A stretch of 64,000 nt of DNA from Verrucomicrobiales bacterium (GCA_031266335.1 JAISBF010000031.1:12507-76506), one strand, 5' to 3'. Positions 1-64,000 are shown, counted from the stretch's first letter. Numbers and translations are program-made. The notes: a model not told the origin generated them from the letters alone.

Positions 1-642
1 TCTGGAGCGGCAAGTTTGGTAAAATTGTTGTATATCCTTCAAGTAAATAGAATCTGAAGTTACCGCCACAATACCCGGCGGACTTTTTGGGGAAACATTG
101 GGTATGTCCCATTCCTGTGTACCGTGACAAAAACAACACCAGCCGTTAATCAAATCCGGCGTGGAACGCACCATGCTCAGCAACAGCAAATTACCGTTGC
201 GATTCCGACCGTAAACATAGACCGGCAGATAGGTGAAAAAAGTATCCGCAATGCCTGTCCTGAAAACCTTGGAACCGCCCAGCGTCGCCTTCTTATAACC
301 GCCGCCTTGCTGCACCTTGGCACCGTCAGCGACAATATCAACCAAGGATAACGCCAGATTATGCGATAAGGCGTACTGCTTCCATAATTCAATATCCTCC
401 ATTTCATCCTGATTAGGCGGATACATTTTATCATCAAAACACGCGAGCATGACAATCACTCCACGGGGAGCCTCTGGTTTCCATGTCTGAAATTTAGCCT
501 CAATGATGTCCTTGTCCTTGAACGGGCCATAATAATATTCGACCGGTGTTTGAGCAAAAACTTTTCCGCCGAAATACCATGCCAGAGAAAAGCAGAAAAA
601 TACTGTTCGGTAAAGTCCGGTAAAATTTTGCAAGGTTGTCAT
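1..642 (-). CDS. hypothetical secreted protein; 3' end cut by the window edge; absent from the supplied ORF track
   Basis: Plus-strand triplets phased from position 1 contain no TTA, CTA or TCA up to 642. The ATG is at 642-640. The translation MTTLQNFTGLYRTVFFCFSLAWYFGGKVFAQTPVEYYYGPF... starts with a signal/anchor-like hydrophobic stretch. It lies 7 nt downstream of the co-oriented esterase gene. Confidence 0.6.
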   Translation of the reverse strand, partial: MTTLQNFTGLYRTVFFCFSLAWYFGGKVFAQTPVEYYYGPFKDKDIIEAKFQTWKPEAPRGVIVMLACFDDKMYPPNQDEMEDIELWKQYALSHNLALSLVDIVADGAKVQQGGGYKKATLGGSKVFRTGIADTFFTYLPVYVYGRNRNGNLLLLSMVRSTPDLINGWCCFCHGTQEWDIPNVSPKSPPGIVAVTSDSIYLKDIQQFYQTCRSR

Positions 643-649
643 ATGTCGG

Positions 650-1558
650 TTATTTGGCGGTTGTGGTAAAAGCACGCCAGAGTTTGGCAAATTTAGCATC
701 GGGCAACCATATCATCATTTTACTGCCAGTGTAATTCAGCACCGACATAGTGCTTTTGGTGGCCGGGTTGCCCAACCAGCCTGATTGTTTGTCAATCATT
801 TGTAGGGGTAGCGATGCAACGGGATTCAATCGCAACGGAATTACAGCCTCAAAAAAGCCTATGGCCAGTTGCGGACTTTGGGCCGGTTCGTGTCGTGTAT
901 TCGGTTCAATGGCGAGACACCACAAGGCTTTTTCCTTGCGGTTAGCATACACTAACTCTGTCATGTTTTCATGACGATATTTTTCATCGTATTGCCCGAT
1001 GATAAACAAGCCGGGCACTGTCCTTACCGGTTCCGCGTCGTTCAAATCATGACAGCCACCCTTGACCGTGGCAAAAGCCATGACTTGTTCCGGTTTCCAT
1101 CTGGCAAAGTGATAGGCGAACTGCCCGCCCGCCGAGTGACCGTACAAACACAATGGCAGACTGGAAAATGACGGCTGGTTTAATTTTTCACCAAATGATA
1201 CCAAGGCCTTAAACAAAGCCGCACCGGAACCCTTCGCGGGATAATCGTAGTCCGCCCAAGGCAACTCACCTTTGAGGTTACAAGTGAGAATGGCGAAATT
1301 CTGTTCCACGGCAAATTTTTGCCAGATTGGTATTTTATGCCAATCCAAGGAGCTGCCCGACCATCCGGGCAGCAAAACCAAAATTCCCCTGACTGTTTGC
1401 GTTTCACCGGACACCCACAGGCGAAAATCCGCGCTGACAAAATTATCCTCGTCCTGCGGGGTAACGCTGAAATTCAGCACGGCTTCAGACGCCGAGGCTT
1501 TGAATATCGCCCCGACAGTCAATCCAATGCAAACAAGTGATTTAATTGTGCGGTTCAT
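650..1558 (-). CDS. secreted alpha/beta-fold hydrolase (esterase-like)
   Basis: N-terminal signal peptide MNRTIKSLVCIGLTVGAIFKASA. Nucleophile-elbow motif GHSAGG in LCLYGHSAGGQFAYHF. Confidence 0.7.
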   Translation of the reverse strand: MNRTIKSLVCIGLTVGAIFKASASEAVLNFSVTPQDEDNFVSADFRLWVSGETQTVRGILVLLPGWSGSSLDWHKIPIWQKFAVEQNFAILTCNLKGELPWADYDYPAKGSGAALFKALVSFGEKLNQPSFSSLPLCLYGHSAGGQFAYHFARWKPEQVMAFATVKGGCHDLNDAEPVRTVPGLFIIGQYDEKYRHENMTELVYANRKEKALWCLAIEPNTRHEPAQSPQLAIGFFEAVIPLRLNPVASLPLQMIDKQSGWLGNPATKSTMSVLNYTGSKMMIWLPDAKFAKLWRAFTTTAK

Positions 1559-1560
1559 TT

Positions 1561-2448
1561 TTATTCGGCGGATAATTGCAGGAATCGAGCTTCAATGTCC
1601 TTGTATTTGGGATACAGCGGGAATTTTTGCAGGAGTTCTTTCAAAACCGCAATAGCCTGTTTCTTTTGCCCAATTTTTTCCAGTGAAGCGGCCTTGGCCA
1701 GTAATAATTCCGCGTGACCTGCAATGGCAAATTGATCCGCGTTTTTTTTCGAAAGGGAGGCAGCCTTGGATTTGGCAATGATGAGCATATCCCACAGCGC
1801 GGCGATTTCCCGCGGCTGGTGCTGTTCATACCAAGGCAGAATAGAAGTATTAAACAATTTTTCCACATTGGCAATCGCGCCAGAATAACCGCCGTCCTCT
1901 TTCAAATAAGCATCCTCAATACGGTAATACTTGGTCAGCAGGGATTCTCCCAAAGATTCCTGCAGCAAATGAAATCCTGTCAGATTATCCGGTCCCTCTT
2001 GAATGCCCTTGAGCACCGTCAGGAAACAATTTATCGCGCGCGGTTGGTCTTCCAAGATGAGGTAAAGATGTCCCTGCAAATTGGCGGCCGCGAGTTCAGT
2101 GGCAATCGGGAGCCGAGAGTCACTGACGAGACCGGTATTTTTCTTTTGCCACTCACGAAAAGCCTGTTGCGGTTTAAGATCTTTCGCAAAGAAAACCTCA
2201 TAAACAGCGCTTAAATACAGGGCGCGATATTCCTCCGATGAATTGCGGGACAAATCTCGAATAGCCGGTTCAAAGCTGTCCTTCATCACCTGCGCCCTTT
2301 GCCAACCGGCTTCTTTTAGCAGTTTCTCGGCTTCGCGTGAAGGCGTTGCGGTTTCCTGTGACCAAAGAACATTGATTCCTGTCAGAAGGAACATCGCCGG
2401 CAATGCCGAAAAATGTGTTAGACTCATAGCGAGACATATGTTAAACAA
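1561..2448 (-). CDS. hypothetical secreted helical-repeat (TPR-like) protein
   Basis: 295-aa ORF with a signal-like N-terminus (an alternative start at 2427 gives MSLTHFSALPAMFLLTG...). Composition is helical and repeat-like. No catalytic motif was recognised. Confidence 0.45.
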   Translation of the reverse strand: MFNICLAMSLTHFSALPAMFLLTGINVLWSQETATPSREAEKLLKEAGWQRAQVMKDSFEPAIRDLSRNSSEEYRALYLSAVYEVFFAKDLKPQQAFREWQKKNTGLVSDSRLPIATELAAANLQGHLYLILEDQPRAINCFLTVLKGIQEGPDNLTGFHLLQESLGESLLTKYYRIEDAYLKEDGGYSGAIANVEKLFNTSILPWYEQHQPREIAALWDMLIIAKSKAASLSKKNADQFAIAGHAELLLAKAASLEKIGQKKQAIAVLKELLQKFPLYPKYKDIEARFLQLSAE

Positions 2449-2454
2449 TTCGCG

Positions 2455-3990
2455 GTGAATATTGAAGCAGAATTTTTTTATAAGTCACAGCCGCGTTTGC
2501 AGTTCATTTTTGACTCGCCCAATCATTGTTCGGTAATTCTGGGCATGTTGGCGTTGGTTTTGTGCGGCGCTCTGGCTTTGTTATGGGGAAATGGAAAGTC
2601 AGTTGCCCGCACAGCGAGCATGATTGCTTGCGCGGTGATGTTGCTTGGCTTGTTGGGCGGACTGGTGCTGACGTATTCACGGGGTGGTTGGGTGGCGTTC
2701 TTCGCGGGATTGGCATTTTATTGGGTAACAGCAAAACCGAAAAAAATAATTCCGGTCAGTGTGTTGGTCGGGTTCCTATGCCTGCTGTGGTTGCTACCTC
2801 ACGGCTGGCAGCGGATGAATTCAATGACCGATGTCACGGAAGACCGCTCAATTTTACATCGGGTGATGGTCTGGCAGGGAGCGCTGACGATGGCGGCGGA
2901 TCATCCATTGACCGGCATAGGCGGTGACAGTTTTGGCAATGAATTTTCAGCGTGGTACCAACCGCTAACCATGAACACCCGCTATTTGGCGGCGTTGAGC
3001 AATTATTTGACCTTGGCTTCGGAAAGAGGATTTCTCGCGTTGTTTATTTACCTCTTGCTATTAGGCTGTCCGTTTGCTATCTGCTTTTACCTTGCACGAA
3101 AACGGCAAAATGCCTTAATAATATCGTTATTGGCGGTAGAAGTGACTTATCTGATTTCTGGACTATTCACTTACAGCACCTCCTTTTGGCATGTAACGGG
3201 ATTATTTCTGTTCGTCTATATAATCGTCCTGGGTTATTTGGGCTATCATTTGGTCAAAAAGAATCTGACCCGAAAAACAGGATGCAAAATCTTGGCCACA
3301 ACGGCGGGAAGTGTCGGCGCGGTAGTATTGGTGTTGTATTTTACCGGTCTGTTTTTTCTGATGGAATTACCTTGTCGCGTTTCCCGTTTGCAAATTTCGG
3401 ATGACATCCCGGCGGTTATGGTTGTACCGCAAAATATCCCGGTGTACGGGACAATCATTCATTTTCACGACAAGGGCGGCTCCGTCCAAGAAGACGGTAA
3501 ATCATCCCTGCGACCGATGGCTCAGGCGGGTTTTATGATTATCGGCTGTGACTATCGGGCAGGAGGAATAGACGGGTTGCGTGATGCTGAAACTGTTATG
3601 CGGTGGGCAATTAATACCTTTTCAGAACAAGGAGTACCATTGTACTTGACAGGATTCGGCGTCGGTGGACGCATGGCGATTTTGGTTTCGGGCAACATCG
3701 AATTTCGAGATAAGGTAAAGGGAGTGGCAGCGGTTAACGCTGCCGTTGAATGGCCATTTCCTGAACTTTCACCTCTGGATCAGCTGGGTTCCCTGCAAGC
3801 CCCCGTGCTTCTGATTTACCATGATGCCTCGGCGCCGAAAATGCTTGCCAGCAACATCGCAAATTTTCTGGAAACTGCCAAAGTCAGGAATAAATCGGTG
3901 CAAATGATTTGTATTCCGAATGATGATAACCAATTAAATCTCGATGGGCTACCGGTGGAAAAGATAGACGAATTTTTCAGGCAATTATAG
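2455..3990 (+). CDS. O-antigen ligase/Wzy_C-like polytopic membrane protein fused to a C-terminal alpha/beta-hydrolase-fold domain
   Basis: Multiple hydrophobic helices. Wzy_C-like motifs TYSRGGWVAFFAGL and HRVMVWQGALTMAADHPLTGIGGDSFG. The C-terminal roughly 190 aa (IHFHDKGG...LTGFGVGGRMAILVSG) looks like a dienelactone-hydrolase-type fold. Confidence 0.6.
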   Translation: MNIEAEFFYKSQPRLQFIFDSPNHCSVILGMLALVLCGALALLWGNGKSVARTASMIACAVMLLGLLGGLVLTYSRGGWVAFFAGLAFYWVTAKPKKIIPVSVLVGFLCLLWLLPHGWQRMNSMTDVTEDRSILHRVMVWQGALTMAADHPLTGIGGDSFGNEFSAWYQPLTMNTRYLAALSNYLTLASERGFLALFIYLLLLGCPFAICFYLARKRQNALIISLLAVEVTYLISGLFTYSTSFWHVTGLFLFVYIIVLGYLGYHLVKKNLTRKTGCKILATTAGSVGAVVLVLYFTGLFFLMELPCRVSRLQISDDIPAVMVVPQNIPVYGTIIHFHDKGGSVQEDGKSSLRPMAQAGFMIIGCDYRAGGIDGLRDAETVMRWAINTFSEQGVPLYLTGFGVGGRMAILVSGNIEFRDKVKGVAAVNAAVEWPFPELSPLDQLGSLQAPVLLIYHDASAPKMLASNIANFLETAKVRNKSVQMICIPNDDNQLNLDGLPVEKIDEFFRQL

Positions 3991-4159
3991 CAAAATTGCC
4001 AAAAAATGCGGAGTTATTCAGCGCCCACCACCGGCCGGATCAAACAGTCGCAAAGTCACCGCTGTCGCCGAATATTCCAGCACCAGCGCAGTGCGTCGCA
4101 GTCCTCCATCCGCCAGACCTCAATGCCCAGTTCCCACGCCGTTTGCCACAATTCCAGTA

Positions 4160-4618
4160 TCAGCGAATTGTCCGCGAAATAGCCGCGCGCGGGACGGATG
4201 AGGTGGCGCGAAACGTTACCAAAGCCAGCAGGAGAAAAAGAAGATTGCGACCGACCACTTGCCAACCGGAAAGGTTTAACCATGTTGGCAAGGACACTTT
4301 GAAACAACCGCAATCGGATTGATTACCCGTGATGTTCATGATAACACCCAAAATCAGAAATAATATCAGTAATCCAGCCGCTAAAAGCGCTCCTTCGTGA
4401 CGGTAAGCTGGCAGCAAAAGACTCAGACCGATGGCAAGTTCCAATCCGGGGATGGTCAGTACAGTCAAGCCTTGAAGCCAAAACGGCAAGAAAGAAATTT
4501 TGAGAATAGCTTGATGAAAACTTTCCAAATCACCAATTTTAGAAAAAGCCGCTGTTAAAAAAACGACACCCAGAATGACGGTGCAGCAGCGGGATAAGCA
4601 TGGTAAAAAGCGATTCAT
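4160..4618 (-). CDS. MauE/DoxX-family membrane protein
   Basis: Four predicted helices and a CGCF motif (SDCGCFKV). It overlaps the upstream rhodanese gene by 4 nt, which is a common pairing. Confidence 0.55.
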   Translation of the reverse strand: MNRFLPCLSRCCTVILGVVFLTAAFSKIGDLESFHQAILKISFLPFWLQGLTVLTIPGLELAIGLSLLLPAYRHEGALLAAGLLILFLILGVIMNITGNQSDCGCFKVSLPTWLNLSGWQVVGRNLLFLLLALVTFRATSSVPRAAISRTIR

Positions 4619-5157
4619 TGGTCAGTTCCTTTTAATTCGTTTTCCACATCTTTTTTCATGGCTGGAGACATGGTCATAGGCAAGCGGCAACTTCTCCATT
4701 CAGGCCAGCCTTCGGGATAGACGTACACATTGTCCAAACCGCGCTGCATCAACTCACGAGCGGCAACATAAACCAAGCCGCAGGAAATGCCGTTGCAATA
4801 AACCACCACGGCGGGAACGGCTTTCAACTTAGCCAATAGTTCATCGGTAATGACGAAAGGGGGTTCCACCGGTAAGTTCAAGGCATCTTCAATATGTCCG
4901 TAGTCGTAAAACTGCTTGGCGCGGACATCTAGGAATATTGTCCTCTCGGCATGAAAAAAACGGATGGCTTGAGGCAAGCCGATGTTTTCAAATTTGACGG
5001 TTTCCTCCGTCTTGACGGGCTTGGCAATCGGAGCTAATAAATCGCGCCAGTTCAAATTTTCCTGCGTCATTAAAATTATCGTGCCAAACGTTAACGACAA
5101 AGCGATAATCTTGGCCAAATTTACCGGTTCAAGTTTTTTTAAAAATAAGGCATTCAT
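4615..5157 (-). CDS. membrane-anchored rhodanese-domain sulfurtransferase-like protein
   Basis: N-terminal TM segment. Rhodanese signatures FLDVRAKQFYDYGHIEDALNLP and the active-site loop VVYCNGISCG. Confidence 0.7.
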   Translation of the reverse strand: MNALFLKKLEPVNLAKIIALSLTFGTIILMTQENLNWRDLLAPIAKPVKTEETVKFENIGLPQAIRFFHAERTIFLDVRAKQFYDYGHIEDALNLPVEPPFVITDELLAKLKAVPAVVVYCNGISCGLVYVAARELMQRGLDNVYVYPEGWPEWRSCRLPMTMSPAMKKDVENELKGTDQ

Positions 5158-5579
5158 GTCTTTTAAAACCCGGTATCATCATTAGTTGAGGTTACCAATT
5201 GCCCATTGCCCAACTAAAAAAACGTAGCGTTGGCTAATGGTGAAGATCGTTACCTCATTCTTGACGATACCAAGAACCTCATAATACCCTGTTTGCTAAC
5301 TAACTGGCAAGTTATTTCTCAGTTAATTCGAGTGGCAGAGTTGCCTTAAATGAAAAGACCCCGAAGCGGCAAGGTGTTTTTGATTATGACGATATGTAAC
5401 AGTTACGTGCCGGAGTTGGTAAGGCCGCTGAGAGAGGTGTGGCTGGCGGCGCAGCCACTGTGGTTACCGCATGGCTGGAGCAACAGGAACTCTTCTCGAG
5501 GCCAGCGCGGCGACGCTGGACCGGCTGTTGCGTCTGCTGCGGACGCGGCAGCCCAAGGGGCGCTGCGGCACCAACCGTA

Positions 5580-5669
5580 TTTCACCACGAAGACACTAAG
5601 GCACGAAGGGAGACAGTTTTCATTTTAAAAAAACGCATCCCTTCGTGCCTTGGTGTCTTCGTGGTGAAA
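5580..5669. repeat. imperfect palindrome (32-nt arms, 31/32 complementary, 26-nt AT-rich loop) built of 8-nt-periodic CACGAAG-type units
   Basis: The left arm tttcaccacgaagacactaaggcacgaaggga (5580-5611) matches the reverse complement of tcccttcgtgccttggtgtcttcgtggtgaaa (5638-5669). Confidence 0.9.
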
Positions 5670-5710
5670 CCGTTCTTCCCCGTCCTCGGGGCCGGGAAAC
5701 GGAAAATTTA

Positions 5711-5739
5711 TTGACATGATATTAAACAATATGTTCTAT
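5711..5739 (+). promoter_or_regulatory. putative sigma70-type promoter with a TTGACATGA box (GH38 gene)
   Basis: TTGACA at 5711-5716, a 17-nt spacer, then TTCTAT at 5734-5739, with the ATG at 5753. The same 9-mer TTGACATGA precedes two other loci in this window. Confidence 0.4.
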
Positions 5740-5752
5740 ATGACTTTCATTT

Positions 5753-8332
5753 ATGACCCCACATAATTCCGCGCCCGTTCAACGCCAGAAATGTTTCCTC
5801 GTCTGCCAAGCTCACATCGACCCGGTGTGGTTATGGCCTTGGGAGGAAGGTTTGACCGAGGCGATTTCCACCTTCCGCGTCGCCGCCGATTTTTGCGACG
5901 AATATCCCGACTTCGTGTTCAACCATAACGAGTCGCTGCTCTACGAATGGGTGGAGCGCCACGACCCGCCGCTGTTCAAGCGCATCCAGGATTTGGTCAA
6001 GCGCGGGCGCTGGCACATCGCCGGCGGCGGCTATTTGCAACCGGACATGATCGGCGCGGCGGGCGAGTCGCTGATCCGGCACTTCCTCGTCGGCAAAACC
6101 TATTTCCGCGAGAAATTCAACGCGGAGCCGCGCGTGGCGTACAACTTTGACTCCTTCGGCCACCCGCAGGGCCTGGTGCAAATCCTCGCCGGCTGCGGCT
6201 TCGACGGCTACGTGTTCTGCCGCCCGAACCGCGCGGTGCTGCCGCTGCCGGTGGGCGCGTTCCGCTGGCGGCACGCCTCGGGCGCGGAGGTGCTGGCCCG
6301 CCGCAGCGACGAGCATTACATCACGCAGGGGCATTTGTTGCGGAAGATGAGCGACACCGACTGGGCGAAATTTTTCGCCGCCGAGGGTGACTTCATGTTC
6401 CTGTGGGGCATCGGCAACCACGGCGGCGGGCCGAGCCGCAAGGAGTACGCCGACTTGCGGAAACTGCCGCGCAAGTTCCCGCGGCTCGAGTTCATCGAGT
6501 CCGACCCGGACACCTTTTTCCGCCACACCGTCAGCGCGCGCGGGCGCGAGAATTTGCCCGTCGTCAGCGACCTCGATTTCAAGCCGGTGCAGGAGGGCTG
6601 CTACACCTCGCTGGCCACCGTCAAGCGCCGCCATCGCCGCGTGGAAAATTTGCTGCAACTGGTGGAGTCATTGTCAGCGGTGGCGTGGTGGCAGGGGCGG
6701 CAGGAGTATCCGGCCGCCGACCTCGCGGTGGCGTGGAAAGATTTGCTGTTCTCCGAGTTTCACGACATCCTGCCCGGCTCGTGCATCCCGTCCGCCGAGG
6801 CGGACAGCCTCAACCTGCTCGGCCACGCCGAGGAAATCCTGCGCCGCCGCCGCGCCAGCGCGCTCATCGCCCTGTTGCGGGACGAGCCGCTGGCCGAGCG
6901 CAACGAGACGCCGATCTTCGTGTTCAACCCGCACAGCTGGCCGGTGACGCAGGACGTGGAGGTCGAGTACGGCCTCGACCAGCAGTACGCGCCGGACAGC
7001 GTCGAGCGCTGGCTCACCGTCAACGGCAAAAAAATCCCCGCGCAGTTCGAGAAGGCGGAGGAAAACCTGCTGCAAAAAGACTGGGGCGAATGGCGCGCCC
7101 GCGCGGTGTTCCCGCTGACGGTGCCGCCGCTCAGCCGCGTGCGCCTGCAAACCCATTACCGCGTCCTGCCGCCGGAGAAAACCGTCCGCTGGCGCGCCCC
7201 GGCGCTGCCCAAGCGCGGCCGCTACCGCCTCAACGTCGGCGGCGGCTGGCAGGCGGGCATCAATGTGCGGACCGGCTTGCTGGACTCGATGTGGCACAGC
7301 GGGCGCGAGGTCCTCGGCCGCGGCTCCTGCCAGCCGCAGATTTTCCAGGACCTCAATCACAGCTGGGCCACGCTGACCGAGTGGGACCGGCCGGTGGCGC
7401 GCTTCACCCTGGCGACGCCCGAACGCACCGCGCAAATCATCGGCTCCGCCTACACGCATAAAATGTTCCCCAAGGGCAAACCGCCCGTCCGCATCATCGA
7501 GGACGGCCCCGTGCGCACGGTCATCGAGGCCGTCTTCGTCAGCGGCCACTCCTACCTCGTCCAGCGCTACGCCCTGCACAAGCTGCGCCCGCTCATCCAG
7601 ATTGACCAAACCATCTTCTGGGCCGAGCACGACCGCAAGCTGCGCCTCGCATTGAACGTCAACCCCGGCCTGAGCCGCGTCGAGGCGGAAAAGTGCTACA
7701 GCATCGACGACGAGACGGCCACCGTCAGCGACGGCAAGGAGCACGACTTCCAGCACTTCCTGTGCCTCTCCGGCCAAGGCCAGGCGCTGCCGCTGACCGT
7801 GGTCTCGCACGGCACCCACGCCTACTCCTTCCGCCCAGGCCTGTTGCGGCTGAACCTCCTGCGCAGCCCGTCCTACTCCACGCACGAGCAGCACCTGCCC
7901 GCCGACTGCGACCGTTACCTCGACCGCTACCAACCGCGGCAGGAGCAGGGCCTCAGCCACGCGCGGTTCTCCCTGCTGTTCGGCCCGCTGACCGGCAACC
8001 GCGCGTGGTCCGCCCGCGCCGCCGCCGAGTTGAACGTGCCGCTGGAGCCGTTCGTGTATTTCCCGACGCAACGGCAGCCCAAGGTCCGCCCGCGCAGCTT
8101 CGCGACGGTGACGCCCGCCAGCGTGCAACTCACCGCGCTGAAAAAAGCCGAGCGCGGCGACGACCTGGTGCTGCGCCTGTGGGAAACCGCCGGGCGCAAC
8201 ACCAAGGGGACACTGACCGTCGAGGGGAAAAAATACCCCTTCACCATCGGCGCGCACTGCCTGCAAACCCTGCGCCTCAACCGCGCCGGCCAGCTGACCG
8301 TGACGGACTTGCTGGAACGGCAGCTTCATTAA
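5753..8332 (+). CDS. GH38 alpha-mannosidase
   Basis: GH38 N-terminal signatures QAHIDPVWLWPWEEG, FNHNESLLYEWVE, GGGYLQPDMIGAAGESLIRH, NFDSFGHPQGLVQIL and WGIGNHGGGP. The length of 859 aa is typical. Confidence 0.85.
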   Translation: MTPHNSAPVQRQKCFLVCQAHIDPVWLWPWEEGLTEAISTFRVAADFCDEYPDFVFNHNESLLYEWVERHDPPLFKRIQDLVKRGRWHIAGGGYLQPDMIGAAGESLIRHFLVGKTYFREKFNAEPRVAYNFDSFGHPQGLVQILAGCGFDGYVFCRPNRAVLPLPVGAFRWRHASGAEVLARRSDEHYITQGHLLRKMSDTDWAKFFAAEGDFMFLWGIGNHGGGPSRKEYADLRKLPRKFPRLEFIESDPDTFFRHTVSARGRENLPVVSDLDFKPVQEGCYTSLATVKRRHRRVENLLQLVESLSAVAWWQGRQEYPAADLAVAWKDLLFSEFHDILPGSCIPSAEADSLNLLGHAEEILRRRRASALIALLRDEPLAERNETPIFVFNPHSWPVTQDVEVEYGLDQQYAPDSVERWLTVNGKKIPAQFEKAEENLLQKDWGEWRARAVFPLTVPPLSRVRLQTHYRVLPPEKTVRWRAPALPKRGRYRLNVGGGWQAGINVRTGLLDSMWHSGREVLGRGSCQPQIFQDLNHSWATLTEWDRPVARFTLATPERTAQIIGSAYTHKMFPKGKPPVRIIEDGPVRTVIEAVFVSGHSYLVQRYALHKLRPLIQIDQTIFWAEHDRKLRLALNVNPGLSRVEAEKCYSIDDETATVSDGKEHDFQHFLCLSGQGQALPLTVVSHGTHAYSFRPGLLRLNLLRSPSYSTHEQHLPADCDRYLDRYQPRQEQGLSHARFSLLFGPLTGNRAWSARAAAELNVPLEPFVYFPTQRQPKVRPRSFATVTPASVQLTALKKAERGDDLVLRLWETAGRNTKGTLTVEGKKYPFTIGAHCLQTLRLNRAGQLTVTDLLERQLH

Positions 8333-8478
8333 CGCAAAGGCGCAAAGGAACGAAGGCGCAAAGAATTTTTTTACAGGGAGATCATGGAGAACATGGAGAT
8401 TATTTTTTTAAAAACCTCCATGAACTCCGTGATCTCCCTGTAAAAAATTCTTTGTTCCTTTGCGCCTTTGCGTTAATG
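8327..8478. terminator. 152-bp imperfect palindrome between convergent genes; likely a bidirectional terminator; same repeat family as 5580-5669
   Basis: The left arm cattaacgcaaaggcgcaaaggaac[gaaggcgc]aaagaattttttt acagggagatcatggagaacatggag pairs with 8415-8478, apart from an 8-nt indel, a 1-nt indel and 3 mismatches. The GH38 stop codon TAA (8330-8332) lies inside the left arm. Confidence 0.6.
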
Positions 8479-8499: not shown

Positions 8500-10605
8500 T
8501 TACCTGACCGGCTCCAGTTTGAAATAATCAATGCCGATGCCCGCCGCGCGCTCCTGGCAGGCGGGATTCTTCCCGACCGGCGTGAGCTTCAACTCGTGCG
8601 CGCCGGCGCCCAGCGTCAGCGTGCCCAGCACCACCGGCGCGGCGGGCGACACGCCCTTGTAACCCTGCTCCGGCGCCTGGTACAAATCCACCGGCGCGCC
8701 GATATTCTCGCCGTCCACCGCCACCTGATAGATGCCGAATCCCGGCGCCTTGGTGAACCGCGCGATGAGGTTGTATTTGCCGGCGGCGCTGACGGTGAGC
8801 GTCAGCAGCAGCGCGTCGTCGCGCCGGTCGGTGAGCCACCACAACTGCCGGTCGTCGCTCCACGCGCCGGGCTGACGGTGCCACATGGTCTGGGTGTGCC
8901 CCGGGTTAGTGGCGTTGGTCCGCGGCATGGACTCCGCCTCGATGGCGCCCGGCTCGATATATTCGCCGCGCCACGGCGTCCAGTAGCCGACGCGCTCGGT
9001 CACCGGCAGCGGCTCGTAAGCGTCGTCACCGTCAGCGGCCTGATACCAGAACGCCGTCGCCGCGAACAGCGAGATGTTGCCGAACGGGCGCGGGTTGGTG
9101 TTGCGGTAATATTTTTCCAGGTAGCCGGCGAACTCCGTCTGGAACGGCACGTCGTCCGCGATGTGCCAGCGCAAATTCTCGACGTGCCCCGCGTTGCTCT
9201 CGTTGATGGGCTGCGCGTGATACGGGCGCGCGAACGGCGTCGGCGAGCACCAGGCGTAGCCGAAATAATCCTCCGCGCCGGTGCCGAACAGCGACGGGAA
9301 TTGCTCGCCGTCCACGAAAAACTTCTCGTCCCCCTCACCCCACCAGCCGCCGCTCGGACTCCACACGTGCAGCGCCACGCCGACGAAGCGCCCGCGGCCC
9401 TTGGTCACCAGCAGCGGCCAGTCAATCTCGCGGTCGGCGCGCGGCATGAACACGTCGCGGTGCCACTTGGCGTGGAAGCGGCCCAGCTTCGCCGCCTCCG
9501 CCACGGTCAGCGGCTGGTGTGCCACCGCGCAACTCAGCGTCACCGGCAGCGGACTGTCGTTGCCGATTTCAATTTTCGCGCCGCGCGCGAACGGCATGAA
9601 CCAGCGCGCGTAAAACTCGCCGTCAGCCGTCATGCCCGCCGCCCAGGTTTCATACGGCTTCGCGCCGCCGAGGAAGCCGAAGAAATCGCCCAGCGGCGAC
9701 CACACCGCCGGCCGGTCCGCGCCGTCCCACGTCATCGTCAGCGTCACCTGCCGCAGCAGCGTCCGCGCCGCCTCGGCGTCGGCGGGCAGGTCTGTTAACC
9801 TCACGCGCAGCGCCGTGACCGCGCCGCTGCCGGTCAGGCTGCCCACTGTCACTGAGCCGCCGGCGGGCACGGTCACCGTCAGCGGCCTGGCGTCCGCGTC
9901 ACGGTCAGCGCCGCGCACGACTTTCGCGTTCAACTCGTCCAGCGCCGCCGTGTCGTCCGCTGACAGTGGCAGCTTGAACGTCGGCACCGTCGTGCCTTTC
10001 GGCAACAGCGTGTAGTTGAACTGGAAATACTTGCCCCAGCCGGAATCCCTCACTTCCGGCGTGCCCTTGTCCGCCGTGATTTTGCAGGATTTTTGGAACG
10101 GTATCGGCACGTACAAATTCCCGCCCGGCGACCAGCCCTGCGGCCACACCACCACGCCGGGATACGACAGATTCGTCCACGCGGCGAACGGGCCGTTCTT
10201 GAAAAAATGCTCGAACGGCATGTCCACCGCCGGCTCCGCCGCGCCGTCGAGGAACAGGCGCACGTGCCCTTTGGCCGCCGCCGCCGACCACACGCGCCAG
10301 ATGACGCCCGGCCCCTCCAGTTCCGCCATGACCACCTGGTCGCCCTCCTCGCGGATGAAGCCCGTGCCGTCCCCGTTCCGGTCCCAGTCCGTATATTGGT
10401 CAGCGGCAGCGTCGTACTTGCTGGCGCGGTCGTAACTCGACGCCTCGCCCGCCCGCTCACCGTCAGCGGGCAGTGTCGCCAGCCGCGCCATGTCCGTGTA
10501 ACGCGCCACCAGGTCGCGATAGGTGTAAGTTTCCGCCGCGGCCGCTGACAGTGTGCTCACCGTCAGCGCCGCGCCCATGATTCCAACGATTAGTTGCTTG
10601 TTCAT
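8500..10605 (-). CDS. GH172 (DUF2961) family glycoside hydrolase with a C-terminal roughly 140-aa beta-sandwich/CBM-like extension, paralog a
   Basis: Signal peptide. DUF2961-like N-terminal region YRDLVARYTDMARLATLPADGE...SSYDRASKYD...ELEGPGVIWRVW. Central motifs WWGEGDEKFFVDGE and GTGAEDYFGYAW. The tail ends ...GIDYFKLEPVR, as in the two other paralogs. Confidence 0.75.
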   Translation of the reverse strand: MNKQLIVGIMGAALTVSTLSAAAAETYTYRDLVARYTDMARLATLPADGERAGEASSYDRASKYDAAADQYTDWDRNGDGTGFIREEGDQVVMAELEGPGVIWRVWSAAAAKGHVRLFLDGAAEPAVDMPFEHFFKNGPFAAWTNLSYPGVVVWPQGWSPGGNLYVPIPFQKSCKITADKGTPEVRDSGWGKYFQFNYTLLPKGTTVPTFKLPLSADDTAALDELNAKVVRGADRDADARPLTVTVPAGGSVTVGSLTGSGAVTALRVRLTDLPADAEAARTLLRQVTLTMTWDGADRPAVWSPLGDFFGFLGGAKPYETWAAGMTADGEFYARWFMPFARGAKIEIGNDSPLPVTLSCAVAHQPLTVAEAAKLGRFHAKWHRDVFMPRADREIDWPLLVTKGRGRFVGVALHVWSPSGGWWGEGDEKFFVDGEQFPSLFGTGAEDYFGYAWCSPTPFARPYHAQPINESNAGHVENLRWHIADDVPFQTEFAGYLEKYYRNTNPRPFGNISLFAATAFWYQAADGDDAYEPLPVTERVGYWTPWRGEYIEPGAIEAESMPRTNATNPGHTQTMWHRQPGAWSDDRQLWWLTDRRDDALLLTLTVSAAGKYNLIARFTKAPGFGIYQVAVDGENIGAPVDLYQAPEQGYKGVSPAAPVVLGTLTLGAGAHELKLTPVGKNPACQERAAGIGIDYFKLEPVR

Positions 10606-38776: not shown

Positions 38777-38778
38777 GC

Positions 38779-39636: not shown

Positions 39637-39711
39637 CTACTTCAGCCCCATCTTAAATTTCCAACCATCTTCAGCGGCCCAAAATTTTTTAAAAAATTTT
39701 TAAAAAACCAG

Positions 39712-39740: not shown

Positions 39741-39768
39741 AACCACATAAATGAAAAGGAGCAAATTA

Positions 39769-49795: not shown

Positions 49796-49805
49796 TTTAA
49801 CCGTC

Positions 49806-51200: not shown

Positions 51201-51240
51201 AATAATGAAACCTACTTTATCAGCATCAACCCCGTGACTT

Positions 51241-55480: not shown

Positions 55481-55515
55481 AAAAAGCCGCTGACAGTGAC
55501 TGCACTGTCAGCGGC
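55481..55515 (-). terminator. rho-independent terminator whose stem is an inverted pair of the abundant GCCGCTGACAGTG word
   Basis: gccgctgacagtg (55486-55498), a 4-nt loop, then cactgtcagcggc (55503-55515). On the minus strand the hairpin is followed by TTTTTTGTT. It lies 21 nt downstream of the SGNH hydrolase stop. Confidence 0.8.
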
Positions 55516-55535: not shown

Positions 55536-56294
55536 TTATTGCAAATATTTGTCAATATACGGCTGAATGGCGTCGGCCCAGATCTGGTAACCGTTGGCGT
55601 TCGGATGCAAAAAGTCGGGCATGATGTCCTTGCCCAGCGTGCCGTCGGATTGCAGGAATTTGTCGCTGAAATCCACGAACACCACCTTGTCGCCGTCGTC
55701 CAGTTTGGCGATGGCGGCGTTGACTTCCTTGATTTTCGCGCGCCAGGGATGGTCGGCCTTTTCGTTGCGCGGGAAAATGGCTTGCAGCAGAATCACCGCG
55801 TCGGGACAGAGCTTGCGGTATTCCGCGACTATCGCCGTGACCCCGTCGATGATATCCTCGGCTGAGTTGCCGATGTTGTTGGTGCCGATCATGATGGCAA
55901 CCAGCTTCGGTTGCAGGCTGCTCATCTGGCCCTGCGACAGGCGCCACAGCACGTTTTCCGTGCGGTCGCCGCCGATGCCAAAGTTGAACGCGCCGTATTT
56001 CACATAGCGTTCCTGCCAGATTTTCTGTCCACCGCCGTGCCAGCCGTCGGTGATGGAATCGCCGTCGAATACCAGCTTGATGGACTGCGTGCGGTTTTGC
56101 GTCTGGGCGGCGTCGTTGCTGCGTTTCACCCGCTCCACCCATTCGGCGCGCGGATAAGGGAAGACGGTGACCTTGGCACCGGCCGGTCGGGACGGCAGTT
56201 CGGCGGGCATCGGCCACACCTTGGGATTGTTTTGGGCGTTAACGGCGACTACGCTCACGAGCGCCATGACGGATGTAAGAAGGAATTTCTTCAT
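55536..56294 (-). CDS. secreted SGNH/GDSL hydrolase
   Basis: Blocks I-V: VFDGDSITDGW, GIGGDRTENVLWRL, AIMIGTNN and DFLHPNANGYQIWA. Signal peptide MKKFLLTSVMALVSVVAVNA. The start was trimmed to 56294. Confidence 0.8.
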   Translation of the reverse strand: MKKFLLTSVMALVSVVAVNAQNNPKVWPMPAELPSRPAGAKVTVFPYPRAEWVERVKRSNDAAQTQNRTQSIKLVFDGDSITDGWHGGGQKIWQERYVKYGAFNFGIGGDRTENVLWRLSQGQMSSLQPKLVAIMIGTNNIGNSAEDIIDGVTAIVAEYRKLCPDAVILLQAIFPRNEKADHPWRAKIKEVNAAIAKLDDGDKVVFVDFSDKFLQSDGTLGKDIMPDFLHPNANGYQIWADAIQPYIDKYLQ

Positions 56295-56380
56295 TCCGTC
56301 CAACTTAATGAATTGCCGCTGATGGTCAACTCTTAAACTGCGTTGGCTAACCGTTTGGCCGCCGAAATTTTCATCAGCGG

Positions 56381-57157
56381 TCAATGATCGGCCGGTTGAA
56401 AGAATTGTTGTTCCGTCGGAATGGCCAGGGTGATTTCCAGTTTTTGAATATGTTCCTTGACCACATCCCAGCGATGCTGATCAACGCCGTGTTCCTTGAA
56501 ACTCTGCCACAAGTGTCGCCAGTATTCGTAAGCTTCCCGGTCTTGCTCTGCTTTCTCCAGCATAAAACCGACAAATCTTTCCAGATATAACGGCGCCTTC
56601 GGCCGCTGCAATGCTTCTTTATAACATTCCGCGGCTTGCTCGTAATTGCCCAACCGTCGCCAATACAAGTCGCCCAGGCGCTGGTATAAAATCGGCTTTT
56701 CGGGAATCACCCGGATGCCGCGCTCCAGCAAATCCTTGCCCGCCTCAATCCACATTCTGGCATCATGCTTGCGCCGGTCGAGGCCTCCCTTGACCGGGCC
56801 GTGCTCGACCGCCACGCTCGCGTTCCACGCCAGATTCCACGCCCCCATGTCCCAAAAAAACGCCACCCGCGGCTGCAACAGCACGCACATTTCCGCCAAC
56901 GCCGCCACCCGCTCCCATTCCTGTTCCTGCCAAGCGCCGGTCAGCGAAAGCCACAGCGAATCCGCCGCCAGGCCGCGAAACCCGCCCAACGCCGCCATGG
57001 TGAAGCCCTGTCCCAGACTGTCACGCAATTGGTAACTCATCGGCAAGTCCTGCCCCACCATCACCACTTTGCGCTCGGCGGCCAGCCGGTTTTCCCAACC
57101 GACTTTTCCCGCGCCCCAGATGACGATCAGCGCCAATGCCAGCAACCGGAGTTTCAT
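56381..57157 (-). CDS. hypothetical membrane-anchored TPR-like protein
   Basis: N-terminal TM segment MKLRLLALALIVIWGA and a helical C-terminal half (LGNYEQAAECYKEAL). It overlaps its neighbours by 4 nt. Confidence 0.45.
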   Translation of the reverse strand: MKLRLLALALIVIWGAGKVGWENRLAAERKVVMVGQDLPMSYQLRDSLGQGFTMAALGGFRGLAADSLWLSLTGAWQEQEWERVAALAEMCVLLQPRVAFFWDMGAWNLAWNASVAVEHGPVKGGLDRRKHDARMWIEAGKDLLERGIRVIPEKPILYQRLGDLYWRRLGNYEQAAECYKEALQRPKAPLYLERFVGFMLEKAEQDREAYEYWRHLWQSFKEHGVDQHRWDVVKEHIQKLEITLAIPTEQQFFQPADH

Positions 57158-60829: not shown

Positions 60830-60859
60830 ACGCGGTAAAGTTCACTGTCAGCGCCGGTC

Positions 60860-61114: not shown

Positions 61115-61135
61115 ATATAATCACCTGTTCTTTCG

Positions 61136-62473
61136 CTACCTGCCCGCCGACCCTATGCCGCCGAACAGTCGCTTTAGTTTATTCTCCCGATTGCCGCCCT
61201 TGAACAGCTTGCCCAGCATTTTCTGCATGGCACGGAAGCGATGCAACAGTTCGTTGACTTCCGTCACGCTGGTGCCGCTGCCCGTGGCGATTCTTTGGCG
61301 ACGTTTCGCATTCAAAACCTCGGGGCGTCGCCGTTCCTGAAAAGTCATGGCACTGACAATCGCCTCCGTTCGCTTTAACACTTTATCGTCCAGAGAGAAA
61401 TTTTGCATACTACCCATGCCGGGCAACATGCCAAGCAGATTTTGCAGCGGCCCCAATTTTTTTAACTGCCTCATCTGATCCATGAAATCCTGCAAGTCAA
61501 ATTCCGCGTTGCGCAATTTGGCTTCCATTTTGGCGGCGTCCTCCAAATCGATCTGCTCCGCGACCTTCTCCGCCAGCCCGTACAAATCGCCCATGCCCAG
61601 CAGCCGCTGGATGAGACGGTCAGCGTGGAACGCCTCAAACTGCTCCGCGCGCTCGCCGGTGCCGATGAACTTGATGGGCACCCCGGTCACCGCCTGCAAC
61701 GAAAACGCCGCGCCGCCCTTCGCGTCGCCGTCGAACTTTGACAGCACGATCCCCGTCAGCGGCACCGCCGCGTGAAACGCCCGCGCCACCTCCGCCGCGC
61801 TCTGGCCCAGCGCCGCGTCCGCCACCAACAGCGACTCGTCAGGGGTGATTTGCGTCGCGGCATTTTTTAGCTCGGCCAACAACTCCGCGTTGATTTCCGT
61901 GCGCCCCGCCAAGTCGAAAATGGTCACATCGAACCGGCCATTGGCAGCGTGCGCCAGCGCCGCCTGCAAGTGTGTTGGCAAATTCATCCCCGGCGCCGGC
62001 GCGAAAACCTCAAGTTCATGCTGCCGCCCCAAAGTTTGCAACTGTTGCACCGCCGCCGGACGACTCAAATCCGCCGCCACCAGCAAGACTTTTTCCCGCT
62101 GTTTCTTCAACATCAGCGCCAGCTTGCCCGCCGTGGTGGTCTTGCCCGCGCCGTTCAAACCGCACAGCGCCACCGTCAGCGGCCGCCGCGCTGACAGTGC
62201 GCCGTCGCCCGCCTGGAAAATCGCCAGCAACTCATCGTGCACCACCTTGACGAACATATCGCCGGGCCGGATGGATTTGCTGAATTCCTCGCCCAGCGCC
62301 TTGGCCTTGACCCGCTCGCAAAAATCCCTGGTAACCCGATAATTGACATCCGCCGCCAGCAGCGCCAGCCGCACCTCGCGCAACGCCTCCGCCACATTGC
62401 TTTCCGTCAGCCTGCCGTAACCGCGCAGCTTGGAAAACACGCCTTGAAATTTATCTGCCAATTGCTCCAGCAT
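61136..62473 (-). CDS. ffh: signal recognition particle protein Ffh (SRP54)
   Basis: GLNGAGKTTTAGKLA, DLAGR and TKFDGDAKGG-like blocks, plus a Met-rich M domain. Confidence 0.95.
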   Translation of the reverse strand: MLEQLADKFQGVFSKLRGYGRLTESNVAEALREVRLALLAADVNYRVTRDFCERVKAKALGEEFSKSIRPGDMFVKVVHDELLAIFQAGDGALSARRPLTVALCGLNGAGKTTTAGKLALMLKKQREKVLLVAADLSRPAAVQQLQTLGRQHELEVFAPAPGMNLPTHLQAALAHAANGRFDVTIFDLAGRTEINAELLAELKNAATQITPDESLLVADAALGQSAAEVARAFHAAVPLTGIVLSKFDGDAKGGAAFSLQAVTGVPIKFIGTGERAEQFEAFHADRLIQRLLGMGDLYGLAEKVAEQIDLEDAAKMEAKLRNAEFDLQDFMDQMRQLKKLGPLQNLLGMLPGMGSMQNFSLDDKVLKRTEAIVSAMTFQERRRPEVLNAKRRQRIATGSGTSVTEVNELLHRFRAMQKMLGKLFKGGNRENKLKRLFGGIGSAGR

Positions 62474-62555
62474 GGGAAAAATAATCTAGGGACGAACCAG
62501 CCCCGGCGCAAAGCAAAACTCCACCCGCTGACCGTGCCCGTCGAATTGGTTACCG

Positions 62556-63368
62556 TCAGCGCCCGCGACCGCCGCCCCAGCCGCCGCCGCGTCCGCCCGG
62601 GCCGCCCGGACCACCGCCACCACCGGGACGGATTTCGGCGTCAATGCCCCGCGATTCCTGCTCCACGGCCTTCATGTAGTCGGGATAAGTTTTCCACCAT
62701 TCGCGGCGTTCCTGCAAATAATCAAACAACGGCAGGTTGGTGTTCAGCCGGCTGAGCAGGGTTTCCCGCTCGGTCAGCATGGCCTGGATTTTCTCGCCGT
62801 CAGCGCGCTTGGCGATGGCGGCCAGCACGTCGGTTTTCATCATCTGGTACAATGCGGAATCCAGCGGCACCAGGCTTTCCTCGCGGCCATACCAAAACTC
62901 GCTGGCCTGAATCGCCGCGTATGCCTTGTCAAAATATTCCAGGATGCCTTCGGGCGTCTGGTTGTCGGCGGAACGCTGTTTGCGAAACACTGCCGGTGAC
63001 CGGCGCGACAGGGATTGTTTCATGAGAAACAGGTATTCCTCGGGCTTGATGCCGTACAGCCGGTTGGCGGTCTCGCCAAGGATGGGATTGACATAGGCGT
63101 CAATTTCCAGGATGCGCTTGGTGGCTTTGTCGTTCTGTTCCTGGACTTTTTTGACCAGTTCATTGACATTATTGACGGCTTGCATGCCGAGCGTGAACTC
63201 GTCGTTGGCCTCCTGGTTTCGTGCCGTGCCGCTGACGGTGGTCGCGGCGGTACCGCTGGCGGTGGCGCTGCCAGTGGCAGTGGCGGCGGCCTTGCCGCGA
63301 TAATCCTGCCCGTGCGCCGGCGGCCAGGCCAGGGCCAGCAATCCCAGTATCAGCGTAATCGGTTTCAT
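62556..63368 (-). CDS. hypothetical secreted protein with a Gly/Arg-rich C-terminal tail
   Basis: Signal peptide MKPITLILGLLALAWPPAHG. The tail is RPGGGGGPGGPGGRGGGWGGGRGR. The stop TGA lies inside a CGCTGACGG copy of the abundant word. Confidence 0.5.
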   Translation of the reverse strand: MKPITLILGLLALAWPPAHGQDYRGKAAATATGSATASGTAATTVSGTARNQEANDEFTLGMQAVNNVNELVKKVQEQNDKATKRILEIDAYVNPILGETANRLYGIKPEEYLFLMKQSLSRRSPAVFRKQRSADNQTPEGILEYFDKAYAAIQASEFWYGREESLVPLDSALYQMMKTDVLAAIAKRADGEKIQAMLTERETLLSRLNTNLPLFDYLQERREWWKTYPDYMKAVEQESRGIDAEIRPGGGGGPGGPGGRGGGWGGGRGR

Positions 63369-63925
63369 TGGTATTTCCCCAGCGCGGTTTGGTAATATTG
63401 CAGATGTTCCTGAATCAGGCGGATGATGTCGGTCACCTGGGTGTCCGCCGTTTGATACAAACCCAGATACCGTTGCAATTCGCCAACCGAACGCCCGAAA
63501 TCGCCGCGCGACTTGGCAAACATATTGTCGGGATCGGTGTCCTGGATGGCCTTGCTCATTCGTTCCTCGCGCTCCTTGTCCGACAGGCTGTAACCGGCCT
63601 GCCGTTTTTGCTTTTCCTGCTGTTCCAGGAATTGTCGTCGTTTGCCCGCGCCGCCGCCGGAGCGGTAATAGCGCGAAATATCCTGCGCCTTGGCAATCAC
63701 CGTCAGCAGCAGTTGATGAGTGTCCTCATCGTGCATCCGGATGGATAGGTTTTTATCCAGCGCGGTCAGGTTTCGCGTGAACGCGCCGGTAATCTGGCTG
63801 AGGTCAATGTTGCTGGTGTTGCGAATCGGATCCAAGTCCTGCGCCCGCAAGGTCACGGTCAGCGCCAGTGTCGCGAGCGTCACGGTCAGCGTCAGTTTCA
63901 GTTTCAATGCCGTTTTTTTCATCAT
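63365..63925 (-). CDS. hypothetical secreted protein
   Basis: Signal peptide MMKKTALKLKLTLTVTLATLALTVTLRAQ. SD GGAGG lies 5-8 nt upstream. It overlaps the downstream gene by 4 nt. Confidence 0.5.
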   Translation of the reverse strand: MMKKTALKLKLTLTVTLATLALTVTLRAQDLDPIRNTSNIDLSQITGAFTRNLTALDKNLSIRMHDEDTHQLLLTVIAKAQDISRYYRSGGGAGKRRQFLEQQEKQKRQAGYSLSDKEREERMSKAIQDTDPDNMFAKSRGDFGRSVGELQRYLGLYQTADTQVTDIIRLIQEHLQYYQTALGKYQ

Positions 63926-63955
63926 TACCTCCCGCCTTTAATCTACCGCATTTTA

Positions 63956-64000
63956 TCACCGCGTTGTTTTGAAATTCTGGTCCGCCGCGCGCTCGAACGC
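63956..64000 (-). CDS. 3' end of an unidentified minus-strand gene entering from the window edge
   Basis: An open frame reads ...AFERAADQNFKTTR then TGA (63958-63956). Only 14 codons are visible. Confidence 0.3.
   Translation of the reverse strand, partial: AFERAADQNFKTTR

Follow-up and report, generated by a model that had tools for sequence, protein, structure and literature searches.

What keeps one short word present in nearly every gene of a stretch of bacterial DNA? This question is raised by 64,000 nt of a Verrucomicrobiales bacterium (GCA_031266335.1 JAISBF010000031.1:12507-76506; hereafter the window, with positions counted from its first letter), for which a sequence-only reading had proposed that the 7-mer CGCTGAC (GTCAGCG on the other strand) is hyper-abundant. 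The word is real. Counted on both strands, 218 copies were found, compared to 12.92 +/- 3.43 (maximum 22) in 100 dinucleotide-preserving shuffles, an approximately 17-fold enrichment (218 versus 12.9 expected), and CGCTGAC ranks first in count among all 7-mers of the window. It is also the top outlier under an order-2 Markov model (30.4 expected; z = 34). Maximal-order Markov observed/expected ratios computed on sub-words were uninformative, as all sub-words of the motif are equally inflated. The counts that had been given for individual genes proved exact (9 copies in the GH38 gene, 12 in GH172a, 10 in GH172b, 20 in the paralog P1, 11 in the gene for the CBM protein, and 4 in ffh).

Alignment of all copies yielded the logo G(-2)-N-CGCTGAC-V-G-T-G-(A)-(C), in which the flanks add about 4 bits, and the identical logo emerged from copies beyond the paralog array and from the part of the window with ordinary GC content (57%). 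The form with 10 specified bases, CGCTGACNGTG, occurs in 87 perfect copies where a first-order model predicts about 0.2 (more than 400-fold), and in 238 copies if up to 1 mismatch is allowed (6.5 +/- 2.3 expected); 62 of the 218 copies are of the form G-N-CGCTGAC-N-GTG. The logo and the CGCTGACNGTG counts thus bear out the earlier suggestion that the flanks lengthen the word to about 13 nt, with some of the example coordinates shifted: CACCGTCAGCGGC starts at 9027, 9874, and 11145 rather than at 9028, 9868, and 11146, and GCCGCTGACGGTG at 10696 and 12607 rather than at 10698 and 12608; the positions 10541 and 55486 given for GCCGCTGACAGTG are exact. Overall, the density in the window amounts to 3.4 per kb for the 7-mer and 1.4 per kb for the form with 10 specified bases. 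Hyper-abundance in both orientations and in coding as well as non-coding DNA was found in the window and in approximately 90 kb of DNA from its relatives.

The word acts at the level of DNA and is not a by-product of protein sequence or codon usage. All 5 stop-free reading frames are used, encoding xLT (66 copies, sense frame 1), xAD (55, sense frame 2), VSx (58, antisense frame 0), xSA (24, antisense frame 2), and xQR (6, antisense frame 1); sense frame 0 would contain a stop codon (CGC-TGA) and is thereby excluded. While 96% of the copies are intragenic, 9 fall outside the list of long open reading frames, and the density is 3.7 per kb outside the listed genes compared to 2.0 within them, some of the former copies lying in short unlisted genes. 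The proposals that the word sits in several frames, that no single codon pair explains it, and that it extends into intergenic DNA were therefore all correct. Furthermore, we applied 2 codon-aware null models, one in which codons were shuffled within each gene (codon-order null) and one in which the protein sequence and codon usage were kept (synonymous null). In the genes at 39.7-64 kb, outside the high-GC block of the window (Table 1), 45 copies were observed, compared to 5.0 under the codon-order null (maximum 13 in 1000 shuffles) and 10.6 under the synonymous null (maximum 21 in 1000 shuffles). Within the high-GC block, 163 copies compare to 10.3 and 35.1, respectively, and in the GH38 and melibiase genes, both single-copy, the enrichment (23 copies compared to 1.2 and 5.4) is as strong as in the paralogs. 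The excess is 9- to 16-fold over the codon-order null (9.0 in the genes at 39.7-64 kb, 15.8 in the high-GC block) and 4.2- to 4.6-fold over the synonymous null (4.2 and 4.6), with none of the 1000 shuffles reaching the observed number. Thus, the ratio to a codon-aware null, which the sequence-only reading had proposed as a check, is not near 1, and, as regards its second check, the enrichment is not confined to the duplicated paralogs, as shown by the genes outside the block and by the single-copy genes. Among the 5 tandem paralogs (75-83% nucleotide identity), the 113 copies are distributed over 48 distinct aligned positions, 16 of which are private to 1 paralog.

These results bear on the possibility that the word is an artefact that reflects the composition of proteins, the codon usage, or the GC content, as could be the case if the TLTV, TVSG, and PADG peptides of beta-rich glycoside hydrolases in a GC-rich genome were multiplied with the paralogs. 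Composition does contribute: the synonymous null retains 10.6 of 45 and 35.1 of 163 copies, in metagenome contigs that are unrelated and GC-rich, copies cluster locally at ACG-CTG-ACG-GTG (TLTV) repeats, and the word becomes denser with increasing GC content. Such an artefact is nevertheless very improbable as the explanation, given the excess over both nulls, the use of 5 frames and of non-coding DNA, the equal enrichment of unique genes, the 48 distinct sites in the paralogs, and a sister lineage that writes a different word into the same proteins using a rare codon (see below). Moreover, while the earlier observation that density tracks GC class is true, GC alone is insufficient, with 3 GC-rich controls at background. 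The closest homolog of the GH38 gene (64% amino-acid identity, from another phylum) contains 2 copies compared to the 9 in the window, and its contig (63% GC) has 0.27 per kb; 718 kb of metagenome DNA, mostly about 60-75% GC, has 0.48 per kb among the matches listed after removal of the seed pair; and a 69% GC AXE1 gene in the sister metagenome-assembled genome (MAG) of the window (L139 13283-14175) has none. When metagenomes were scanned for an inverted pair of the form CGCTGACNGTG-N(0-15)-CACNGTCAGCG, at least 120 loci were returned, nearly all of which are unrelated GC-rich contigs at background; among the loci listed, none is homologous to the window and a few encode repetitive TLTV-containing proteins. 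Window positions 5640-8351 are matched exactly by an independent Logan assembly of raw reads (SRR14710922), which speaks against an artefact of assembly.

The word is specific to a lineage of termite-gut Verrucomicrobia. The window matches MAGs labeled Verrucomicrobiales, and the sample codes Gx485 and Pc512 stand for Glyptotermes sp. and Prorhinotermes canalifrons, both lower termites (PMC11707648). In the sister MAG (L004, L138, and L139; 95-97% nucleotide identity to the window), CGCTGAC is the top outlier 7-mer with 2.1-3.7 per kb, and 2 further termite-gut MAG lineages with about 80-81% nucleotide identity, L001 and L002, carry 3.6 and 1.7 per kb, respectively, with the same extended logo and with CGCTGAC at or next to the top among outlier 7-mers. 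The outgroups L129, L131, L133, and L003 (66-72% identity) are at background and have no other outlier word, and 3 loci from other phyla (L005, L006, and L007; 45-47% ffh protein identity) have 0.07-0.33 per kb. Look-ups for exact protein matches with the ffh product of the window returned no match. Altogether, CGCTGAC was found in 4 assemblies of 3 lineages, a variant, CGCTAAY, in 3 assemblies of a nested lineage, and neither in the 4 outgroup lineages. A second, weaker over-represented 7-mer, CTGCAAC/GTTGCAG, was observed in L004 and L138 of the sister MAG (15-17 copies compared to about 3 expected; 0.3-1 per kb), the window having 0.3 per kb of it.

The variant word characterizes L128, L141, and L142, 3 contigs from 3 samples with 96.5-98% mutual identity, which are nested inside the motif-bearing clade and group with the window and the sister MAG in a neighbor-joining tree of about 2.6 kb; the nucleotide identity of the L128 lineage to the window is about 84%, compared to about 81% for L001 and L002. 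In these contigs, CGCTGAC occurs at only 0.28-0.44 per kb, and CGCTAAC and CGCTAAT together reach 2.5-2.7 per kb (CGCTAAC: 30 copies compared to 1.1 expected, z = 27.7). The logo of this dialect is G-N-CGCTAAY-G-R-C-S-A, so that GRC has replaced GTG as the preferred flank as well. The switch has occurred in place: GCCGCTGACGGG in the ffh gene of the window reads GCCGCTAACGGG in L128, GGCGCTGATG reads GGCGCTAATG in the dialect lineage at another orthologous site, and a non-coding copy downstream of the S16 gene is switched likewise (Table 1). Within proteins, the dialect changes the frame-specific peptides (AD to AN, SA to LA), and 13 of the 20 rare leucine CTA codons in L128 lie inside a CGCTAAY word. 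CGCTGAC is likely the ancestral dialect, because L001 and L002 share the form of the window. A population-wide switch of 1 letter points to a specific recognizing protein together with a drive that converts sites; codon usage, peptide content, or selection acting on individual sites could hardly have brought it about. A further contig in the clade, L132 (JGI 3300042636, 2.6 kb), has neither dialect, and 2 ancestral sites read CGTTGAC and look decayed in it; either the system has been lost there or the sequence is too short to tell a lost word from a third dialect.

Comparison of aligned orthologs (ffh, S16, the KH-domain gene, and trmD) revealed that the word stands at differing positions in differing lineages, and that lineages without a copy at a given position carry versions with 1 or 2 mismatches there, as in the series CCGCTGACGGTGAG (L001), CCGCTGGCGGTGAG (L002), and CCGTTGCAGGCCAG (window). 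Copies therefore arise by point substitution, repeatedly and independently. Existing copies are kept: over 21 kb of alignment between the window and the sister MAG (4.8% divergence), 41 copies are intact in both, out of 45 in one and 44 in the other (91-93%), compared to 74% of random 7-mers. Under the first-order model, the exact 7-mer is 17.7-fold enriched, and the 21 7-mers with 1 mismatch average 1.9-fold. Such gain, conversion of near-matches, and maintenance are compatible with any sequence-specific drive, be it uptake or another. An intergenic repeat of the repetitive extragenic palindrome or miniature inverted-repeat transposable element type was considered and rejected, since 96% of the copies lie inside genes and have arisen by point substitution at aligned positions; a scan of the whole 64 kb against Rfam returned no family at gathering score.

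Furthermore, the word is depleted in DNA that is likely foreign. A stretch of 2.8 kb around a small insertion sequence (IS) is free of copies (about 5.6 expected at the neighboring density), a block of 5.2 kb containing a GH130 gene has 2, the AXE1 gene of the sister MAG has none, and the first 5.3 kb of the window, with about 48% GC, have 3, exactly as had been counted before. Proteins from Paenibacillus share 70-72% identity with the GH130 protein, for which reason its block probably came from another phylum. GH130 proteins are about 70% identical across phyla, so that a search with this one brought no further relatives. The opposite possibility, that the high-GC block is a foreign island carrying the motif of its donor, was dropped, as the excess over the synonymous null is equal in both GC classes (4.2-4.6) and as the high-GC housekeeping genes of the sister MAG (QRPTase, Sua5, GHMP kinase, rsmA, and comEC; 64-70% GC) carry 4.7-8.2 copies per kb. 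Within this one genome (L139), the GC content of housekeeping genes spans 57-70%, and the word becomes denser with increasing GC, from about 2 to 8 copies per kb. Opportunity could account for this correlation, or GC and density could share a cause, e.g., the rate of recombination.

Inverted pairs of the word form hairpins, of which the one at 55486-55515, recognized in the sequence-only reading, has a perfect 13-bp stem and a 4-nt loop, lies 21 nt past the stop codon of a GDSL-lipase gene (55536-56384), and is the best terminator-like site at 46-64 kb; the surrounding 98-nt stretch folds at -38.4 kcal/mol. A second pair that had been reported at 62527-62561 exists as well, yet it spans 62526-62561 and is imperfect; one of its copies (62555-62561) provides the TGA stop codon (CGC-TGA-C) of the gene at 62556-63368. 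With 1 perfect and 1 imperfect case, terminator-type inverted pairs involve only about 2% of the copies, and close inverted pairs (22) are not more common than close direct pairs (18). A further pair lies within GH172a, where it is read on the gene strand as a hydrophobic stretch of the ALTVS-LSA type.

We favor, at about an even chance, the reading that CGCTGAC is a self-recognition word of the DNA-uptake type that is kept abundant by molecular drive, because the combination of features described above resembles the DNA uptake sequence (DUS) of Neisseriaceae and the uptake signal sequence (USS) of Pasteurellaceae. We infer uptake as the driving step, the existence of a receptor, and natural transformability of these bacteria. 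In such a system, a sequence-specific DNA-binding component of the transformation machinery would prefer double-stranded DNA with G-N-CGCTGAC-V-G-T-G. DNA of relatives would then be taken up more, through a ComEC channel, and be recombined into the chromosome, whereby word-bearing alleles would be imported more than word-less ones and molecular drive would fill every tolerated position, protein-coding or not. A shift in receptor specificity would carry the word along at thousands of sites, giving rise to dialects such as CGCTAAY-GRC. In Neisseria, the counterpart of the putative receptor is the minor pilin ComP. A candidate channel protein could be identified at least in the sister MAG, which encodes an intact ComEC/Rec2-family protein of 753 aa (L139 6146-8407) 2 genes upstream of the GH38 ortholog; the protein matches Pfam Competence with 173.6 bits as well as DUF4131, scores above the cut-off of TIGR00360, and its gene contains 14 copies of the word.

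Known uptake words have been described in only 2 proteobacterial families (bioRxiv 10.1101/2025.10.24.684340). Like the present word, the DUS of Neisseriaceae (e.g., ATGCCGTCTGAA and its dialects, bound by ComP) is asymmetric, 10-13 nt long, present in both orientations within and between genes at about 1-2.5 per kb, occupies 1-2.5% or more of the DNA, contains a stop codon in 1 frame, forms inverted pairs at terminators (a terminator-like pair in the present case), exists in dialects that are 1-3 nucleotides apart and follow phylogeny, and is absent from recently acquired DNA (PMC3630211; bioRxiv 10.1101/2025.10.24.684340). In contrast, the present word is unrelated in sequence, occurs in another phylum (uncultured Verrucomicrobiota of lower-termite guts), is 96% intragenic with few copies in terminators, has a looser 3' flank, and reaches 5-8 per kb in GC-rich genes. 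The highest DUS density is that of Kingella oralis, with 5,918 kingDUS in 2.4 Mb or about 2.5 per kb (PMC3630211). The earlier statement that the density here surpasses that of DUS and USS hence applies to the 7-mer (3.4 per kb) but not to the form with 10 specified bases, whose 1.4 per kb is within the known range. The USS of Pasteurellaceae (AAGTGCGGT and ACAAGCGGT types) is similar in having a core with a weaker extended flank and 2 family-level dialects, and in that most copies lie within genes in tolerated frames, where they shape peptide content; its accumulation can be explained by mutation and uptake bias, i.e., by molecular drive (PMC1939737, PMC1626085). It differs from the present word in sequence and taxon, and no AT-rich helically phased flanks were seen here. 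Taken together, the resemblance to DUS and USS that had been suggested before is strengthened by lineage specificity, turnover, a dialect, depletion in probably foreign DNA, a terminator-like pair, and the ComEC-family gene of the sister MAG, although such a likeness is also expected from a drive like that behind the highly iterated palindrome (HIP) words of cyanobacteria.

Several observations weigh against the uptake reading. HIP words, too, are reported or expected to be lineage-specific, conserved, replaced by an alternate word, and depleted in foreign DNA. At the locus in the window, comEC is a remnant of about 62 codons, no competence genes are present in the 64 kb, and this strain may have lost comEC at this locus. 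ComEC is the sole gene of the competence machinery seen in the loci examined, which revealed no pilus, ComEA, or DprA gene and no receptor candidate, and a scan of all lineage loci examined for prepilin motifs returned no match. ComEC is also widespread, including in bacteria that are not known to be transformable. A report of natural transformation in Verrucomicrobiota was not found in the literature searched. The ratio of perfect copies of CGCTGACNGTG to perfect copies plus those with 1 mismatch is 1:2.7, looser than the 1:1.15-1.45 of DUS (PMC3630211), and copies in the window are not evenly spaced (coefficient of variation of the gaps 1.1-1.5, no more even than random). Finally, with 96% of copies intragenic, there is only 1 clean terminator pair, compared to about half of the uptake words in predicted terminators in Neisseriaceae and Pasteurellaceae (bioRxiv 10.1101/2025.10.24.684340).

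Alternatively, the word could be made and kept inside the cell, uptake playing no part: a sequence-specific DNA methyltransferase, or a different enzyme that acts at specific sites, would be linked to nicking or mismatch repair and convert near-matches through biased repair or gene conversion, as proposed for cyanobacterial HIP1 (GCGATCGC); a change in enzyme specificity would then produce the alternate word. The sequence-only reading had listed such a methyltransferase-linked bias, and we consider it a serious rival, although less likely than uptake. HIP1 and the alternate HIP words display the same pattern as found here: a 15- to 300-fold excess, up to more than 1 copy per gene, use of all frames, conservation between genomes, and, in some lineages, an alternate word instead (PMC5861425, PMC4390886). 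The close densities in coding and non-coding DNA and the lack of concentration at terminators are as expected if a process worked evenly on all resident DNA, and the very high density in GC-rich housekeeping genes (5-8 per kb) as well as a phylum without known competence fit this explanation as well. However, HIP words are 8-nt palindromes containing methyltransferase sites, whereas the present word is asymmetric, about 13 nt long, and tapers in information into its flanks. Neither a DNA methyltransferase nor a Vsr-like gene was found in approximately 150 kb of lineage DNA, a small sample. A signature of very-short-patch repair of deamination is also missing from the window, i.e., there is no selective lack of one-off variants with C-to-T or G-to-A changes: TGCTGAC and CGCTGAT are at 3.0 and 3.7 times expectation, respectively, and CGCTAAC (4 copies compared to 7.1 expected) does not deviate significantly. 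For HIP words, an origin in methylation-dependent mismatch repair has been proposed (PMC4390886, PMC5861425), and the function of HIP1 is debated between such repair, nucleoid structure, and an aid to transformation (PMC4390886, PMC5861425, bioRxiv 10.1101/2024.09.10.611283).

The role in nucleoid structure that has been argued for HIP1 (PMC5861425) leads to another alternative, in which each copy would be a selected binding site of an abundant nucleoid- or chromosome-structuring protein with which it co-evolves. Conservation of sites above background between close genomes and an asymmetric, operator-like word of about 18 bits are consistent with this possibility. We nevertheless regard it as quite improbable, since 2-8 sites per kb amount to thousands of sites, each under very weak selection, and sites in nearly every gene and in both orientations are unlikely to be required; periodicity or even spacing is absent at this scale, and a whole-population switch of 1 nucleotide, with rare codons and amino-acid changes in conserved proteins, is hard to achieve without drive.

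With regard to orientation, 96 copies lie on the plus strand and 122 on the minus strand, and 121 are in sense compared to 88 in antisense with respect to the gene. The sense fraction is equal in plus-strand (19:15, 56%) and minus-strand genes (102:73, 58%), so that this weak bias follows transcription and not replication. A sense bias of 2-3:1, as had been claimed, is found in GH172a, P1, the CBM protein gene, and ffh but not in GH38 (4:5) or GH172b (6:4). These data speak against a polar signal for recombination or segregation, read by RecBCD/AddAB or by FtsK in the manner of Chi or of the FtsK orienting polar sequences (KOPS), which the sequence-only reading had listed as an alternative and which now appears hardly credible. 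The word does resemble such signals in being short, asymmetric, and G-rich, and GCTG..GGTG is by eye loosely like Chi of Escherichia coli (GCTGGTGG); Chi sequences vary among taxa, and both Chi and the KOPS or architecture imparting sequence (AIMS) octamers are taxon-specific words that occur in excess and are recognized by machineries that process DNA. However, these are strongly skewed with the direction of replication, whereas the present word is unpolarized over 64 kb, and at about 1 per 4.5 kb, Chi of E. coli is 10-25 times rarer.

Whichever drive is responsible, the word is a new instance, in a new phylum, of the very small class of genome-wide self-marking words. Literature searches for it, and for competence or uptake sequences in Verrucomicrobia, yielded no earlier account, the hits to the word being primers only. 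With slightly less than an even chance in our judgment, it could represent a third, independently evolved self-recognition system for uptake and the first outside the Proteobacteria, with at least 2 dialects (CGCTGAC-VGTG and CGCTAAY-GRC), genome-wide rewriting of codons and peptides, and perhaps inactivation in one strain through loss of comEC. The 2 dialects in sister lineages make the mechanism testable, as the responsible protein should be the one that co-varies with the dialect; the outcome would decide between uptake and methylation or repair and would bear on the 30-year-old question of HIP1. An unrelated word with the full signature in another phylum would suggest that kin-restricted exchange is broader than 2 families, and, if this is true, such uptake systems could be discovered in metagenomes from sequence alone. 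Moreover, the word can serve as a sensitive marker of native versus acquired DNA in these MAGs, as a signal for binning, and as a candidate tag for the delivery of DNA into the so far intractable termite-gut Verrucomicrobia.

Table 1. Copies of the CGCTGAC word and associated features of the window.
Feature	Position	Strand	Description
Word population	1-64000	96 on +, 122 on -	218 copies of CGCTGAC/GTCAGCG
Low-GC stretch	1-5300		LPS-type genes; O-antigen-ligase-like gene, MauE, rhodanese; 0.6 per kb
comEC remnant	4020-4208	-	About the last 62 codons; abuts the low-GC MauE/rhodanese cassette (4160-5157)
High-GC block	5753-36970		GH38, three GH172/DUF2961, five tandem paralogs of ~1330 aa, melibiase; 63-68% GC per gene; 5.3 per kb
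Inverted pair in GH172a 5' end	10541-10570		GCCGCTGACAGTG-tgct-CACCGTCAGCGCC; similar pair at 12607-12640 in GH172b
Copy-free stretch	36971-39750		Contains the IS
Small IS	37202-38082		DDE transposase gene 37219-38040; 18-nt terminal inverted repeats 37220-37237 and 38029-38046; extra 16-nt inverted repeat outside these; word absent
Ordinary region	39751-64000		ffh, trmD, S16, and L19 genes; 54-60% GC in 2-kb windows; 52 copies, ~2 per kb
Motif-poor block	47280-52446	+	GH38-like, DUF386, MFS, GH130; 0.4 per kb
Inverted pair, intrinsic-terminator-like	55486-55515	-	Full 13-nt word, GCCGCTGACAGTG-CAGT-CACTGTCAGCGGC, then TTTTTT
Non-coding copy	60843-60853	-	CGCTGACAGTG, 6 nt past the S16 TGA stop; CGCTAACGGCA at the same place in the dialect lineage
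ffh copy	61755-61761	-	Kept in every motif-bearing relative; GCCGCTAACGGG in the dialect lineage, synonymous CTG to CTA
Imperfect inverted pair	62526-62561	-	Between the gene at 62556-63368 and ffh

Further features of the window were observed alongside the word. The 5 paralogs of about 1330 aa (12692-34901), which have a weak, below-cut-off Pfam match (Glyco_hydro_42M) alone, are interleaved with the melibiase gene and flanked by the 3 GH172/DUF2961 genes. The GH38 gene is without a close homolog outside this species, the next best having 64% identity. Just upstream of it, at 5580-5669, lies a long hairpin with 41-nt arms that are 88% complementary and an 8-nt loop; copies of this hairpin flank the rsmA-NUDIX gene in the sister MAG (L139 8389-8477 and about 9828-9916), and it constitutes a separate repeated element that does not contain the CGCTGAC word. 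Finally, the minus strand at 53517-54302 encodes a protein of 261 aa that has an HNH_repeat domain, associated with homing endonucleases, and is kept in the sister MAG.

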